DNA of 26,819 nt from contig CAYTGH010000001.1 in the NCBI GenBank assembly GCA_964437355.1, positions 1 to 26,819 of the forward strand, written 5' to 3'. Below the pieces are notes generated by a model, which was given only the letters and a program-made list of their open reading frames with translations, was not told where the DNA came from and searched no databases. Every line of letters begins with the position of its first letter. The first letter of the stretch is position 1. Source of the stretch: an uncultured Candidatus Saccharibacteria bacterium. GTDB lineage: Bacteria; Patescibacteriota; Minisyncoccia; Minisyncoccales; UBA1441. Of this stretch, positions 4,687-8,730 are shown piece by piece. A program made the translations under genes and the position numbers.

Positions 4687-5898
4687 ATGATGGAAAAGAA
4701 TACCCTTAATCAAAAAATTCAAGAGATTTTAGAAAGAGGAGTGGAAAAAGTATATCCTTCTAAATCTTTCTTAAAAGAAAAGTTGCTTACTAAAAAACCG
4801 ATGAAGCTTTACGCCGGTTTGGACCCGACGGCCTCTTCTTTACATATTGGGCACTTGGCCATTTTAAATAAACTGGCTCAATTTCAAAAGCTAGGACATC
4901 AGGTCTTTTTTCTGATTGGAAATTTTACATCCCTTATCGGTGATCCCACGGGACGCTCTGCTGTTCGTCCCCAATTAACCGAAAAAGAGGTTTTAGCTAA
5001 TAGTCGTGTTTTCAAAGAGCAGGCGGAAAAAGTTTTGTCATTTGACTCTCCTAATCCTGCTCGAATAGTTTACAATAGCCAATGGCTTTCTGAATTAACC
5101 TTAAAAGATTTGATTAAGCTGACTTCCCATTTTACGGTTCAACAGATGATGGCGAGAGACATGTTTCAAAAAAGAGTAGCTAGTAAGAAACCGATATTTA
5201 TTCACGAGTTTCTTTATCCAATCTTCCAGGCCTATGACAGCGTCGCTCTCGAAGCGGATATGGAGGTGGGAGGCAATGATCAGACCTTCAATATGCTTTG
5301 TGGCCGATCTTTAGTAAAAGACTTACAACACCGGGAAAAGATTGTTTTGACGGGACAGCTTTTAATAAACGCTGACGGATCTAAAATGAGTAAAACTGCT
5401 TCGAATGCCGTTTTTCTCAGCGACGCTCCGTTAGAAATGTTCGGTAAAATTATGTCTTACCCTGACTCACTAATCGAACCAGCTTTTACTCTTTGTACGC
5501 AGGTTTCTTATGTCGAGGTAAAAAAAATAGGTAAAAATCTGAAGAAGCAAGAAATTAATCCTCGCGATGCTAAAATTCGTCTGGCCCAAGAAATCGTTGG
5601 CATTATCTGGGGGAAGGGAAAAGCCGTCCAAGCGGCTCAAGAATTCCAGCGCATCTTTCAGCAAAAATCATTGCCGTCTGAGATAGTAGAAGTTAAGCTG
5701 TCGAAACGGCGTATTTTGCTCGTTGATTTATTAATAAAAACCCATCTTGCCTCCTCCCATTCGGAAGCTCGAAGGTTAATTGCCCAAGGGGGCATTAAGA
5801 TTAATCAGCAAGTTCAAAGAGAATGGAATCAAGAAGTGGCCATACCCAAAGGTACGATTGTCCAGCGCGGAAAAAGGAAATTCGTGCGAATTCAATAA
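4687..5898 (+). CDS. tyrS: Tyrosine--tRNA ligase
   Basis: YAGLDPTASSLHIGH, YPIFQAYDS, GGNDQTFN, KMSKT, C-terminal S4 domain (SEARRLIAQGGIKIN). Start may be 4690. Confidence 0.98.
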   Translation: MMEKNTLNQKIQEILERGVEKVYPSKSFLKEKLLTKKPMKLYAGLDPTASSLHIGHLAILNKLAQFQKLGHQVFFLIGNFTSLIGDPTGRSAVRPQLTEKEVLANSRVFKEQAEKVLSFDSPNPARIVYNSQWLSELTLKDLIKLTSHFTVQQMMARDMFQKRVASKKPIFIHEFLYPIFQAYDSVALEADMEVGGNDQTFNMLCGRSLVKDLQHREKIVLTGQLLINADGSKMSKTASNAVFLSDAPLEMFGKIMSYPDSLIEPAFTLCTQVSYVEVKKIGKNLKKQEINPRDAKIRLAQEIVGIIWGKGKAVQAAQEFQRIFQQKSLPSEIVEVKLSKRRILLVDLLIKTHLASSHSEARRLIAQGGIKINQQVQREWNQEVAIPKGTIVQRGKRKFVRIQ

Positions 5899-5905
5899 AG
5901 AGTTA

Positions 5906-6844
5906 TTAAGTTCTAGAAAGGGATTTTTTTTGAAAAAATGCAAAGATGCTATTGGCGGCAATAGTGCCTTCGCTAGCAGCGGTAATGATCTGGCGAACAT
6001 TATCCGAGCTATCAGTAATATCTCCCGCGGCCCAAACGTGAGGATTGCTTGTTCTCTGATCTGCCCGAACTTTAATATAACCCTGGGTATTAGTTTCTAA
6101 TGCTAGCTGATTAGTTAATAATTTTTGAGGAATGGTTCCTATCTCAACAAAAATTCCCTGGAGAGGAATTCTTTTTTGTTTTTGATAAGGCTTATCTAAA
6201 ACGACAGCTTCTAAATCTTTTTCTCCTTCAAGAGCAGCAATTTGTCTTTCGTAAATCACTTCGATACGAGGATGATGAGTGACTTGGTTTATCCAGATTC
6301 TTTCTCCATGTAACTGAGGCCCTCGACATATTTGATAAACTTTTTTAGCTATTTTGGCTAAGTAAAGAGAAGCCGTTGTCGCGCTATCTCCACTGCCAAT
6401 AACAGCAACGATTTGATTTTTGTAAAACTGAGCGTCACAAGTAGCGCAATAAGAAAGCCCCTGCCCTAGGAATTTTTTTTCTTCAGGCAATTCTAACCGA
6501 CGATGTTGAGTTCCCGTTGCCAGCAAAATAGTTTCTGCAGAAAAATCTTTGTCCTCACGAGTCTTTAATTGAAAATTCTGCCCAGGAGATATTTTAGTTA
6601 CTTGATCAATTATTATTTGGGTCCCTAATGATTCAGCGTGTTCTCGCATCTTATTGACTATCTCGGCGCCAGAAATATTTTTTTCGGTAGGGAAATTACA
6701 GATTTGATGAGCTTCAGACATAAGTCCGCCCGAAGTAGCCCCGATAATAAGATGATTAATACCATAACGGGAAGCGTAAATCGAAGCGGTTAGCCCGGCC
6801 GGACCGGCTCCAATAATAATCAAAGGGTATTCCTTGTTTTCCAT
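5906..6844 (-). CDS. trxB: Thioredoxin-disulfide reductase family flavoprotein
   Basis: IIGAGPAGLTASIY FAD motif, GLSYCATCDA redox CxxC, VWAAGDIT, QIITAASEG. Confidence 0.93.
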   Translation of the reverse strand: MENKEYPLIIIGAGPAGLTASIYASRYGINHLIIGATSGGLMSEAHQICNFPTEKNISGAEIVNKMREHAESLGTQIIIDQVTKISPGQNFQLKTREDKDFSAETILLATGTQHRRLELPEEKKFLGQGLSYCATCDAQFYKNQIVAVIGSGDSATTASLYLAKIAKKVYQICRGPQLHGERIWINQVTHHPRIEVIYERQIAALEGEKDLEAVVLDKPYQKQKRIPLQGIFVEIGTIPQKLLTNQLALETNTQGYIKVRADQRTSNPHVWAAGDITDSSDNVRQIITAASEGTIAANSIFAFFQKKSLSRT

Positions 6845-6853
6845 AACAACTTT

Positions 6854-8083
6854 TTAAATTTTTCCTCTTAATTTTTCAGCGGTTAAGATTCTTCTAATGG
6901 CTAAAAGATAAGCCGCTGTCTTTAAGCTTATTTTTTGATGATGTTCTTTCTGGAGAGAAAGAACCCGAATCCAATTATTAATCATTTTTTCTTTTAGGAG
7001 CTTAGCTAAGTAGTCTTCCGCTAAAATATTTCCGGTTTTATTCTGGCACCATTCAAAATAGCTTACAATAACTCCACCAGAATTCACTAATACGTCTGGA
7101 ACAACAGTGATGTTTTTCGAAAAAAGTTGCTTCTCGGCAGAATAGGTAACCGGCCCGTTAGCCACTTCAACAATGTAAGAAGCATTAATTTTACCCACAT
7201 TTTTTTCGGTAATTTGGTTCTCAAGAGCGGCGAGGATGAGAATATCTACCGGAAGTTCAAGAATTTTTTGATTACTAATCGGTTGTCCTTTAGAATAATT
7301 AACAACAGATCCTTTTTCCTTTTTAGTTTTTCCCACCGCTACAATATCCAAACCATTTTTGTCATAGATTCCACCTTGGCTATCGCTGACGGCTACTATT
7401 TTGAAATGATTTTGATTTAACATTTGGGCCAAGTTAGCACCAGCATTGCCAAATCCCTGCATGGCAATCTTGAGGTGGCTTTTAGGCAAGCGATAAGTTT
7501 TTATTATTTCTTGGATAATAAAAAATCCTCCTTTAGCCGTGGCATCTGCCCTGAGTTTTAAACCGCCAAGAATTAAAGGCTTTCCGGTAATCATTGCTGG
7601 TTCGTGATGGCCAGTTTTCTTTTCATATTCGTCTAACATCCAAGCCATGGTCTGTGAATTTGTATAAACATCGGGAGCGGGAATATCTTTGTCTTGCCCC
7701 AGAACTGGGTAAAAGAAATCAATGAATTTACGGCTGATAATTTCTTGCGTCTTTAAAGAAGTTTTTTTCGGATTAAACTTGACAGCTCCTTTAGCTCCGC
7801 CATAAGGAATTTCCACTAAAGCGTTTTTGATAGTCATCCAAAAAGATAAAGAAGTTACTTCATCTTGATTTGCTTGCGGATGAAAACGGATGCCTCCTTT
7901 GCCCGGGCCGAGAGCATCATTAAAAAGAACGCGCCAAGCGGGATAAGCTTTCCCTTGAACCCTTAAAATCGTTTTTTTGACCCTCTGAGGATGAGAAAGC
8001 AATTGGACCTCTTTGGAGGACAATCGGTCAATTTTTTGGACCTCTTTAAGATAATAACGAATATTATTAAAGGTGTTGTTCAT
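6854..8083 (-). CDS. gdhA: Glu/Leu/Phe/Val dehydrogenase, most likely glutamate dehydrogenase
   Basis: GPGKGGIRFHP, MTIKNA, PYGGAKG, DIPAPDVYT, TGKP, QGFGNAG, EVANGP, PDVLVNSGGVIVSYFEW. Confidence 0.92.
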   Translation of the reverse strand: MNNTFNNIRYYLKEVQKIDRLSSKEVQLLSHPQRVKKTILRVQGKAYPAWRVLFNDALGPGKGGIRFHPQANQDEVTSLSFWMTIKNALVEIPYGGAKGAVKFNPKKTSLKTQEIISRKFIDFFYPVLGQDKDIPAPDVYTNSQTMAWMLDEYEKKTGHHEPAMITGKPLILGGLKLRADATAKGGFFIIQEIIKTYRLPKSHLKIAMQGFGNAGANLAQMLNQNHFKIVAVSDSQGGIYDKNGLDIVAVGKTKKEKGSVVNYSKGQPISNQKILELPVDILILAALENQITEKNVGKINASYIVEVANGPVTYSAEKQLFSKNITVVPDVLVNSGGVIVSYFEWCQNKTGNILAEDYLAKLLKEKMINNWIRVLSLQKEHHQKISLKTAAYLLAIRRILTAEKLRGKI

Positions 8084-8090
8084 GGTAAGT

Positions 8091-8444
8091 TTAGTTTTTC
8101 GATGTTTGAATATTTTTTAGAATTTCTTCTAATTCTTGCTGAAGAGCTTCTTTGGGCCTTAAGCCGATAAATTCTCGGATTATCTCCCCCTTGTAGAATA
8201 GTTTCATATTGGGAATACTGCGAATTTGATACTGGCCAGCTAAGTTAAGATTTTCTGGAATTTCGGTATTTAATTTAGCAATTCTTATTTTATCTTGCAT
8301 TTCATCGGCGATGCTTTCTAAGGCCGGCGCCATTAAAAGACAAGGCTGGCACCAAGGAGCCCAAAAATCCACGAGAACAGGAAGATCTGATTGTAAGACC
8401 TCCTTGTCAAAATTTTGGCTATTGACTTCAATAGATTGAGACAT
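8091..8444 (-). CDS. trxA: Thioredoxin
   Basis: FDKEVLQSDLPVLVDFWAPWCQPC and cis-Pro motif RSIP. Confidence 0.96.
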   Translation of the reverse strand: MSQSIEVNSQNFDKEVLQSDLPVLVDFWAPWCQPCLLMAPALESIADEMQDKIRIAKLNTEIPENLNLAGQYQIRSIPNMKLFYKGEIIREFIGLRPKEALQQELEEILKNIQTSKN

Positions 8445-8450
8445 GGTAGT

Positions 8451-8693
8451 TTATTTTTTAAGTATTTCTCGAAGAAGGAATTCCCACTCTTTTTTCTTTT
8501 TAACATTAAAAGAATAAAAACAGGCCTTGAAATGGTCCTGCAAATATAATTCAGTAATTTTTTTAATGGCCGCTTGAGCCGCTGATAATTGCTCAATGAC
8601 TTGACGGCAATTGGCTTCTTTTTCGATAAGCCGGCTGATTCCGTCTATTTGTCCCTTAATGATGTTGAAACGTTGGGGAAGACTTCTTGGCAT
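8451..8693 (-). CDS. CsoR/RcnR/FrmR-family (DUF156) transcriptional repressor
   Basis: RFNIIKGQIDGISRLIE...C29..VIEQLSAAQAAI...H54xxxC58, the C-H-C fingerprint; 80 aa; first gene of the operon. Confidence 0.93.
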   Translation of the reverse strand: MPRSLPQRFNIIKGQIDGISRLIEKEANCRQVIEQLSAAQAAIKKITELYLQDHFKACFYSFNVKKKKEWEFLLREILKK

Positions 8694-8700
8694 CTAAATC

Positions 8701-8730
8701 ACTATATACCCCCCGAGGGTATATTGTCAA
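8701..8730 (-). promoter_or_regulatory. Sigma70 promoter of the csoR-trxA-gdhA-trxB operon (leaderless)
   Basis: Minus strand: TTGACA (8730-8725), 18 bp, TATAGT (8706-8701), 7 bp, ATG (8693). Confidence 0.85.
8704..8724. promoter_or_regulatory. CsoR-family operator
   Basis: Perfect inverted repeat ATATACCC-CCCGA-GGGTATAT with C/G tracts, matching the TACCC-N-GGGTA type operators of CsoR/RicR/CstR. It lies across the promoter spacer directly upstream of the CsoR-family gene. Confidence 0.88.

Follow-up and report, generated by a model that had tools for sequence, protein, structure and literature searches.

A predicted autoregulated thioredoxin operon that includes glutamate dehydrogenase in the genome of an uncultured Candidatus Saccharibacteria bacterium

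We analysed a 26,819-nt stretch of DNA (the window) from an uncultured Candidatus Saccharibacteria bacterium, which is contig C1 (CAYTGH010000001.1, assembly GCA_964437355.1) of a 495-kb genome in 85 contigs and 91% complete. Positions 5906 to 8730 of the window hold four genes on the minus strand, encoding a CsoR/RcnR-family repressor (8451–8693, 80 amino acids (aa)), a thioredoxin (Trx; trx, 8091–8444, 117 aa), a hexameric-type glutamate dehydrogenase (GDH; gdh, 6854–8083, 409 aa) and a low-molecular-weight thioredoxin reductase (TrxB; trxB, 5906–6844, 312 aa), and in front of them a promoter with a predicted operator. The gaps between the genes are 6, 7 and 9 bp, with no room for internal promoters, and as judged from these gaps the four genes would form one co-transcribed unit. 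The first-pass annotation had described this co-oriented arrangement, and its open reading frames, gaps and sites were all reproduced here. By their GDH, the closest named relatives of the host are metagenome-assembled genomes (MAGs) of Patescibacteria, for example Shapirobacteria, and DNA of the genome was detected in DNA sequencing runs of salt-lake and marine (sediment) metagenomes; no RNA run was found to contain the locus.

The best-scoring promoter between positions 5500 and 9400 lies in the 62-bp spacer between ruvC and the csoR-like gene. It is of the sigma-70 type and consists of a -35 hexamer TTGACA (8725–8730, minus strand) and a -10 hexamer TATAGT (8701–8706, minus strand) separated by 18 nt, which together match the consensus at 11 of 12 positions. 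The spacer between the two hexamers is filled by a 21-bp palindrome, ATATACCCTCGGGGGGTATAT (8724–8704), which can be written as the G/C-tract inverted repeat ATATACCC-TCGGG-GGGTATAT and which runs into the -10 hexamer. A G/C-tract inverted-repeat operator overlapping the promoter is a trait of the CsoR/RcnR family and is present here as a predicted site. The ATG of the csoR-like gene (8693) lies only 7 nt beyond the -10 hexamer and has no Shine-Dalgarno sequence before it, so that the operon transcript is probably leaderless. The orthologue of locus L111 shows this layout too.

Comparable loci were collected from other genomes. When the 80-aa repressor was used as query, a word-indexed protein search returned only the protein itself and one orthologue, and the others were gathered through GDH loci and whole-genome searches. 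The resulting set of trx-linked CsoR-like proteins consists of eight members, all from bacteria of the candidate phyla radiation (CPR): the window, L024, L026, L027, L023, L019 (genome G054), L018 (genome G043) and protein P0002 of locus L111. All eight loci carry TTGACA followed by a G/C-tract inverted repeat. The repeat follows the hexamer immediately in 7 of the 8 (in the window and in L024, L026, L027, L023, L019 and L111) and lies 20 nt downstream of it in L018; examples of these orthologous operators are TTGACA-TATACCCCCTAGGGGTAT in L024 and TTGACAaATATACCCCCTGGGGGTATAT in L111. Since this promoter and operator layout recurs in eight orthologous loci, it is not due to chance. The directly joined design is also found in a Shapirobacteria locus (L022, 3290–3400), where trx and gdh are preceded by TTGACA and a G/C-tract site that resembles a degenerate operator, ACACCCCCCAGCGGATAT. 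No CsoR-like gene is present within 3 kb of that site; the gene for the regulator may lie elsewhere or may have been lost.

A genome scan for further operators found none beyond chance frequency. The pattern ATACCC-N3-7-GGGTAT occurs once in the 495-kb genome, at 8704–8724, and not at all in a backwards-read control. Looser patterns occur across the whole genome at the rate seen after shuffling (ACCC-N3-7-GGGT, 13 against 11.3; TAYCC..GGRTA, 11 against 11.4), and a loose operator-like match about 170 bp upstream of nrdD was set down to chance. A wider regulon beyond this operon is not supported by these scans.

The repressor matches PF02583 over residues 6–63 with 61.1 bits (cut-off 22.8). Its best match in the PDB is CsoR of Mycobacterium tuberculosis (MtCsoR, 2hh7; E 8e-9), and InrS, FrmR, Geobacillus CsoR and Streptococcus pneumoniae CstR are matched as well. 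The residues C29, H54 and C58 align with the Cu(I) ligands C36, H61 and C65 of MtCsoR. The earlier observation that an Asn (N28) precedes the first Cys of this triad in place of a Tyr was confirmed from the translation and from the alignment to MtCsoR. The complete x-C-H-C triad, together with the closeness to MtCsoR, an operator of the CsoR G/C-tract type and a best NCBIfam match to RicR, though far under its cut-off, would suit a genuine Cu(I) sensor, a CsoR proper, through which copper stress would induce the Trx system to repair thiols damaged by copper in a cell that has lost its exporter. It is known that copper sensors of the x-C-H-C kind are recognised by neighbouring CopA and CopZ genes and that x-C-x-C marks persulfide sensors (PMC8643695). 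No CopA/CopZ-type copper efflux genes were seen near the operon. The neighbours are ruvC and yebC, co-oriented upstream, and tyrS, which lies downstream in convergent orientation with 7 bp between its end and trxB. The first-pass annotation had pointed out that no metal exporter lies in the operon. In the genome as a whole, a profile search found no E1-E2 (P-type) ATPase (14 of 14 control genomes positive), and the CopA fragment of a relative used as query gave no match.

Alignment of the eight trx-linked proteins (A1) places the weight of conservation on the cysteines. The first Cys is present in 8/8 and the second in 7/8, L018 being the protein in which it is displaced. At the His position the eight residues are H/N/N/N/E/E/E/E, so that H54 of the window protein is the lone His, and the residue before the first Cys reads N/D/D/D/S/T/G/E, without a Tyr in any of the eight. 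The substitution of His by Asn or Glu, in seven of the eight proteins that head a like operon, includes the closest orthologue, P0002, which is 63% identical to the window protein, shares the yebC-ruvC-csoR-trx synteny and carries Asn at this position. Two conserved Cys without a conserved ligand His thus describe the clade, whereas the window copy has the His. Other CsoR-family genes of the same order are of the type Y-C...H...C/H (Y-C and H in 5/5 aligned), and they adjoin P-type ATPase fragments, a cupredoxin-like protein, DsbD-like membrane proteins or genes for rubrerythrin or superoxide reductase (SOR). The loss of the His in the orthologues, the missing second-shell Tyr, the lack of CopA/CopZ neighbours and of any P-type ATPase, and the metal-gene company of the true Y-C-H-C proteins make the copper reading very unlikely in our view. 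Because the orthologues keep the Cys pair but neither the His nor the Tyr, the sensing unit would be the Cys pair, with His54 a local substitution. His54 is most likely a lineage-specific Asn-to-His change rather than a copper ligand, and the repressor most likely works as a cysteine redox switch. The initial proposal of a thiol rather than a copper sensor is supported by these lines of evidence.

A Cys pair of this kind raises the question of a true CstR, sensing persulfide or polysulfide specifically. The host would then live in a sulfidic salt lake or sediment, where the Trx system would serve as a depersulfidase. Among the closest orthologues of the window protein, the x-C-x-C pair comes with an Asn in place of the His, which matches the 'wedge' Asn of S. 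pneumoniae CstR, and the salt-lake and marine (sediment) metagenomes in which the sequence was detected would agree with such a habitat. Against this, no sulfurtransferase, persulfide dioxygenase or sulfide:quinone oxidoreductase (SQR) gene was seen in or near the operons examined. Apart from one variant described below, these operons hold only trx, gdh and trxB beside the repressor gene, and TauE is likewise missing from them. In addition, the match of the window protein to the solved CstR is of low identity (E 2e-5), behind those to CsoR, InrS and FrmR. We consider a specific persulfide sensor unlikely, and favour the more general cysteine redox switch.

The three enzymes of the operon have recognisable signatures. 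Trx scores 103.5 bits against TIGR01068 (cut-off 96.8). Its active site (8340–8354) reads WCQPC where the canonical motif is WCGPC; the orthologues have WCQPC, WCMPC or WCRPC, and WCGPC is found in G043 only. GDH matches ELFV_dehydrog with 213 bits, ELFV_dehydrog_N with 146 bits and the GDH of Bacillus subtilis with 321 bits. The GDHs of Pyrococcus and Thermotoga match too, and the motifs GPGKGG, PYGGAKG, TGKP, ANGP and GGVxVSYFEW are all conserved, so that both ELFV domains, the catalytic Lys and the glutamate-binding motifs are in place. Against the NCBIfam equivalog GdhA_Arch it scores 383.7 bits, with a cut-off of 750. Membership of the hexameric ELFV family is firm, and substrate and cofactor are what we infer from the sequence. 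TrxB contains the redox centre CATC and the motifs GAGPAG and GSGDSA, scores 295.6 bits against TIGR01292 (TRX_reduct), under the equivalog cut-off of 343, and has as its best PDB match TrxB3 of Sulfolobus solfataricus (3f8p, E 6e-60). A tblastn search of the genome found single homologues of Trx, TrxB and GDH, and the genome holds one CsoR-family gene.

The position of gdh between trx and trxB led to a synteny search, one of the checks suggested for this locus, and adjacency of GDH and TrxB was found to recur in CPR bacteria and DPANN archaea in several gene orders. A GDH scan with one genome per species gave 80 loci, or 81 with G043. In 16 of the 81, GDH has TrxB at a distance of no more than 300 bp, and 23 have Trx or TrxB within 1.5 kb. 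The order Trx-GDH-TrxB is present in the window, in L023-L027 and in genomes of the window's own family, Trx-TrxB-GDH in L018, L030 and L078, TrxB-Trx-GDH in L039 and TrxB-GDH in L029, L032, L050, L061 and L080, while L067 and L047 have divergent GDH/TrxB pairs. By record title, the hosts of linked genes include, beside CPR bacteria, Aenigmatarchaeota, Micrarchaeota, Woesearchaeota, Nanoarchaeota, Parvarchaeota and Undinarchaeota, with MAG binning as a caveat. A maximum-likelihood tree puts the window GDH in a clade of 13 rows (support 100/99), 10 from CPR and 3 from DPANN; linked GDHs make up 10 of the 13. The linked rows cluster on this tree (none of 500 label shuffles gave a value as low), and its well-supported branches force at least 6 changes of linkage.

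Such a distribution could also arise if a trx-gdh-trxB cassette had spread through CPR and DPANN by horizontal transfer and the genes stayed together by descent, the linkage being without functional meaning. The mixture of CPR and DPANN rows in the window's GDH clade, the patchy presence of GDH inside one family and a cassette TrxB of a type unlike the housekeeping TrxB of the order speak for transfer. On the other hand, the adjacency occurs in at least 5 gene orders or orientations with those repeated changes of linkage on the tree, and a separate, weakly similar pair in genome G017 is adjacent as well. We therefore give little credence to linkage by descent as the whole explanation. Since the adjacency has been retained through rearrangement, selection for it is the better account. 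In the G017 pair (L106, 2724–5076; contig C11), a distant TrxB-like flavoprotein (28% identical, with Glu in its cofactor site as described below) adjoins a 371-aa ELFV dehydrogenase (40% identical). This pair may represent a GDH-TrxB pairing of NADH type with an origin of its own.

Within the order of the window's genome, 58 of 61 genomes have TrxB and 17 have GDH (E<=1e-20). In the window's family, GDH is present in 6 of 12 genomes and adjoins trxB in all six, the order being trx-gdh-trxB wherever the contig extends far enough. In the four GDH-less genomes of the family that were examined, trx and trxB are adjacent to each other. From this pattern, gdh appears to be an accessory gene that was placed exactly between trx and trxB, where it would aid the thioredoxin system without being indispensable to it. 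A variant operon was observed in L019 (5567–7803; G054, contig C8). There a CsoR-like gene (C-N-C) and operator are followed by a 397-aa flavin mononucleotide (FMN) protein with a Glu_synthase domain (PF01645, 389 bits) and by trx, and a 2x[4Fe-4S] ferredoxin is encoded on the same strand just upstream of the promoter and operator. The Glu_synthase-domain protein is a second, different glutamate-linked oxidoreductase predicted to stand under such a regulator.

For GDH to serve TrxB, the two enzymes would have to share a cofactor. An acidic residue ending Rossmann strand beta-2 is the textbook determinant of NAD(H) binding. HRRxxxR is the motif by which low-molecular-weight thioredoxin reductases (TrxRs) bind the 2'-phosphate of NADPH, and TrxRs without it use NADH, F420 or ferredoxin (PMC6262447, PMC10880999). 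In the window TrxB, the segment CRGPQLH aligns with IHRRDTFKA of S. solfataricus TrxB3; it retains the Arg of position 2, has His as its seventh residue and contains no acidic residue. A census of trxB neighbourhoods over the order provided 41 TrxBs that are not beside gdh or trx, and these were compared with 23 GDH-linked TrxBs from CPR and DPANN. Arg occupies position 2 of the motif in 22/23 of the linked enzymes, against Arg or Lys in 4/41 of the unlinked ones, and Glu occupies position 1 in 0/23 against 39/41 (Fisher's exact test, p ~2e-15 and ~4e-12 for this Arg/Glu split, uncorrected for shared ancestry). One exception is the weakly similar adjacent pair of G017, in which the TrxB-like protein carries the Glu. 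We had considered that the degenerate motif of the window TrxB means use of NADH; this was set aside, as the NADH-type TrxBs of the order carry Glu, which was never seen in the GDH-linked clade. The usual context of a Glu-type gene is the string ftsZ, a galU-like nucleotidyl transferase, NAD(P)HX dehydratase (nnrD), trxB, enolase and an archaeal-type phosphoglycerate mutase (iPGM/apgM), exemplified by L121 (2614–6909) and present in about 35 similar loci (L115-L153) from most genomes of the order. It is curious that a nicotinamide-repair enzyme lies beside the Glu-type TrxB.

The cofactor segment of the window GDH is closest to those of the Pyrococcus furiosus and Thermotoga maritima enzymes (VAVSDSK/RGGIY), ahead of the NAD-specific RocG of B. 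subtilis. The P. furiosus and T. maritima GDHs accept NADP(H). The reading that we favour is that GDH and TrxB form a matched NADP(H) pair. The suggestion made at the outset, that GDH supplies NAD(P)H to TrxB, gains support from the recurrent adjacency and from the NADPH-type site of the GDH-linked TrxBs.

GDH might instead be present for its product, with 2-oxoglutarate acting against H2O2 or with the enzyme serving a stress-induced catabolism of nitrogen and amino acids, while TrxB draws on the general NAD(P)H pool. It is known that 2-oxoglutarate scavenges H2O2 and that gdhA aids peroxide tolerance in Streptococcus mutans (PMC5700188, PMC5884300). An AhpC/TSA peroxiredoxin was not detected in the window's genome, and tblastn with the rubrerythrin and SOR of relatives found no homologue in it. 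The occurrence of TrxB without GDH in half of the family also suits a role for GDH of its own. Such a role leaves unexplained why GDH is tied to TrxB (the 16 loci within 300 bp) over Trx alone, and why the linked TrxBs are of the NADPH type and the unlinked ones of the Glu, or NADH, type. We consider it improbable that the product accounts for the gene by itself. The product and cofactor roles are compatible rather than exclusive, and because 2-oxoglutarate removes H2O2 and gdhA aids peroxide tolerance elsewhere, GDH may serve twice.

Another consumer of reduced Trx may be deoxynucleotide synthesis. Class I and class II ribonucleotide reductases (RNRs) were not found in the genome, while the class III enzyme NrdD and its partner NrdG are present. 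In the relative G007 (L104/L025), the genes nrdD-nrdG-trx-gdh-trxB follow each other in one orientation, and this order suggests that Trx also feeds deoxynucleotide synthesis, so that Trx probably feeds the only RNR of the cell, the class III NrdD. In the nrdD gene of the window's genome (contig C3, 15748–18777; G000), about 330 aa are inserted in frame between ...DVRSM and CRLRLDL, at the Cys-Cys loop, which has no interruption in G007. The first residue of the insert is Cys, its last residues are ...THN with a Cys next to them, and a LAGLIDADG-like motif lies within it; by these features it is a typical predicted intein.

Taken together, we interpret the locus, with moderate confidence, as an autoregulated four-gene thiol-redox operon in which a redox-switch repressor would control a Trx/TrxB system fuelled by GDH. 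The reduced repressor tetramer would sit on the palindrome and block RNA polymerase. Oxidation of C29 and C58' to an inter-subunit disulfide or polysulfide, in the manner of CstR, would release it from the DNA and allow expression of all four genes. GDH would then convert glutamate to 2-oxoglutarate and pass NAD(P)H, which the TrxB site suggests to be NADPH, to TrxB. TrxB would reduce Trx, and Trx would repair oxidised or persulfidated thiols and re-reduce the repressor, closing the loop. The 2-oxoglutarate made by GDH may add non-enzymatic scavenging of peroxide. A supply of NAD(P)H of its own would matter in a cell without detectable NAD kinase or peroxiredoxin. The operon looks like a self-fuelling thiol-reducing module.

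Several observations weigh against this interpretation. The window repressor itself retains the full C-H-C copper triad. The trx-linked CsoR-like proteins are 18–63% identical to it and may not form one clade. The repressor and operator were found in 0/11 other genomes of the window's taxonomic family, and the regulation would for this reason be a recent or patchy add-on. Of the 81 GDH loci, 58 are unlinked, including the two closest relatives of the window GDH (L020 and L021). The half of the family's genomes without GDH keep trx-trxB, and TrxB does not require GDH. On this account, GDH would accompany TrxB as an accessory without being an obligatory partner. The CRGPQLH segment of the window TrxB is the most degenerate motif in its clade, and the variable residue of SDS(K/Q/R)GG in GDH bears no relation to linkage when linked and unlinked enzymes are compared. 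Finally, the NAD kinase profile PF01513 is matched in 0/12 genomes of the family and passes the cut-off in 2/61 genomes of the order, single-contig genomes included, and the C-terminal domain PF20143 is found in 1/61 genomes of the order (profile controls positive in 14/14 and 12/14 genomes). An undetectable NAD kinase fits poorly with an NADPH-type TrxB and makes for a paradox. Three possibilities are that NADP is scavenged, that the cells have an unrecognised kinase, or that NADH is after all what the Arg-type site binds. Should NADP be in short supply and obtained by scavenging, it would make particular sense to express a dedicated enzyme that reduces NADP+ together with its main consumer.

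A broader generalisation is tentative, and we regard it as possible though doubtful. CPR bacteria and DPANN archaea might share a portable closed-loop module, in which a GDH of the NADP type works with a TrxR of the NADPH type, Trx being included or not. The module would recycle NADP(H) from a pool that is small and may be scavenged, in cells without NAD kinase, an oxidative pentose-phosphate pathway or peroxiredoxin. In several CPR lineages, it would stand under an as yet undescribed fifth functional class of CsoR-family repressor, a disulfide-stress switch that can be reset by Trx. If true, the CsoR family would gain a new task, control of the thioredoxin system, beside the sensing of copper, nickel/cobalt, formaldehyde and persulfide, and a first plausible redox-stress regulator could be named for CPR bacteria. 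The pairing of GDH with TrxR offers a testable answer to how ultra-small, biosynthetically stripped symbionts keep their thiols reduced, and it probably bears on the making of deoxynucleotides through the class III RNR. The division of TrxRs into a GDH-linked Arg type and a stand-alone Glu type, combined with the apparent lack of NAD kinase, leads to the question whether these cells contain NADP and, if they do, from where they obtain it. All four proteins are small and easily expressed and can be assayed without culturing the organism.

In a full-text literature search we found no paper on a CsoR-family regulator of trx genes, on a trx-gdh-trxB operon or on a dehydrogenase gene between trx and trxB, in line with the initial impression that the arrangement is not a described regulon. 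Its parts have counterparts in known systems. CstR of Staphylococcus aureus, Enterococcus faecalis and S. pneumoniae (PDB 7MQ1-3; PMC8643695) is alike in belonging to the PF02583 family, in having an x-C-x-C pair without conserved His or Tyr, in the Asn found at the His position in the nearest orthologues of the window protein, in its G/C-tract operator over the promoter and in the predicted derepression through inter-protomer thiol oxidation. It differs in its targets, which are sulfurtransferases, persulfide dioxygenase and SQR rather than trx, gdh and trxB; the window copy, moreover, has regained the His, has a shorter C-terminus and comes from a CPR host. With the Cu(I)-sensing CsoRs of M. 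tuberculosis (2hh7), Geobacillus (4m1p), Streptomyces lividans (4adz) and B. subtilis, the window repressor has in common the C-H-C triad, the ATACCC..GGGTAT-type operator and the predicted autoregulation. In contrast to them, it lacks the second-shell Tyr, its His is not conserved in the orthologues, its predicted target is a thioredoxin system and its genome is without CopA/CopZ and P-type ATPase.

Control of trx genes by thiol switches is known elsewhere from RsrA/SigR-trxBA in Streptomyces, from Spx and from OxyR. In these systems, as proposed here, a Cys switch responds to disulfide or peroxide stress by inducing Trx and TrxR and is then reset by Trx. They belong to unrelated protein families, however, and the present locus would combine one repressor, one operator and one operon that includes a dehydrogenase. 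In an spx-mutant background of S. mutans, gdhA has been reported to contribute to peroxide tolerance (PMC5700188). Canonical NADPH-dependent TrxRs and the NADH-dependent TrxR of Thermoplasma acidophilum (PMC6262447) resemble the window TrxB in the CxxC centre (here CATC) and in the FAD and NAD(P)H Rossmann motifs, and loss of HRRxxxR is known to accompany a change of electron donor in TrxR (PMC6262447). Unlike the canonical NADPH-TrxR systems, a single order has here two types of TrxB, a Glu type encoded in the string nnrD-trxB-eno-apgM and an Arg type encoded beside gdh and trx.

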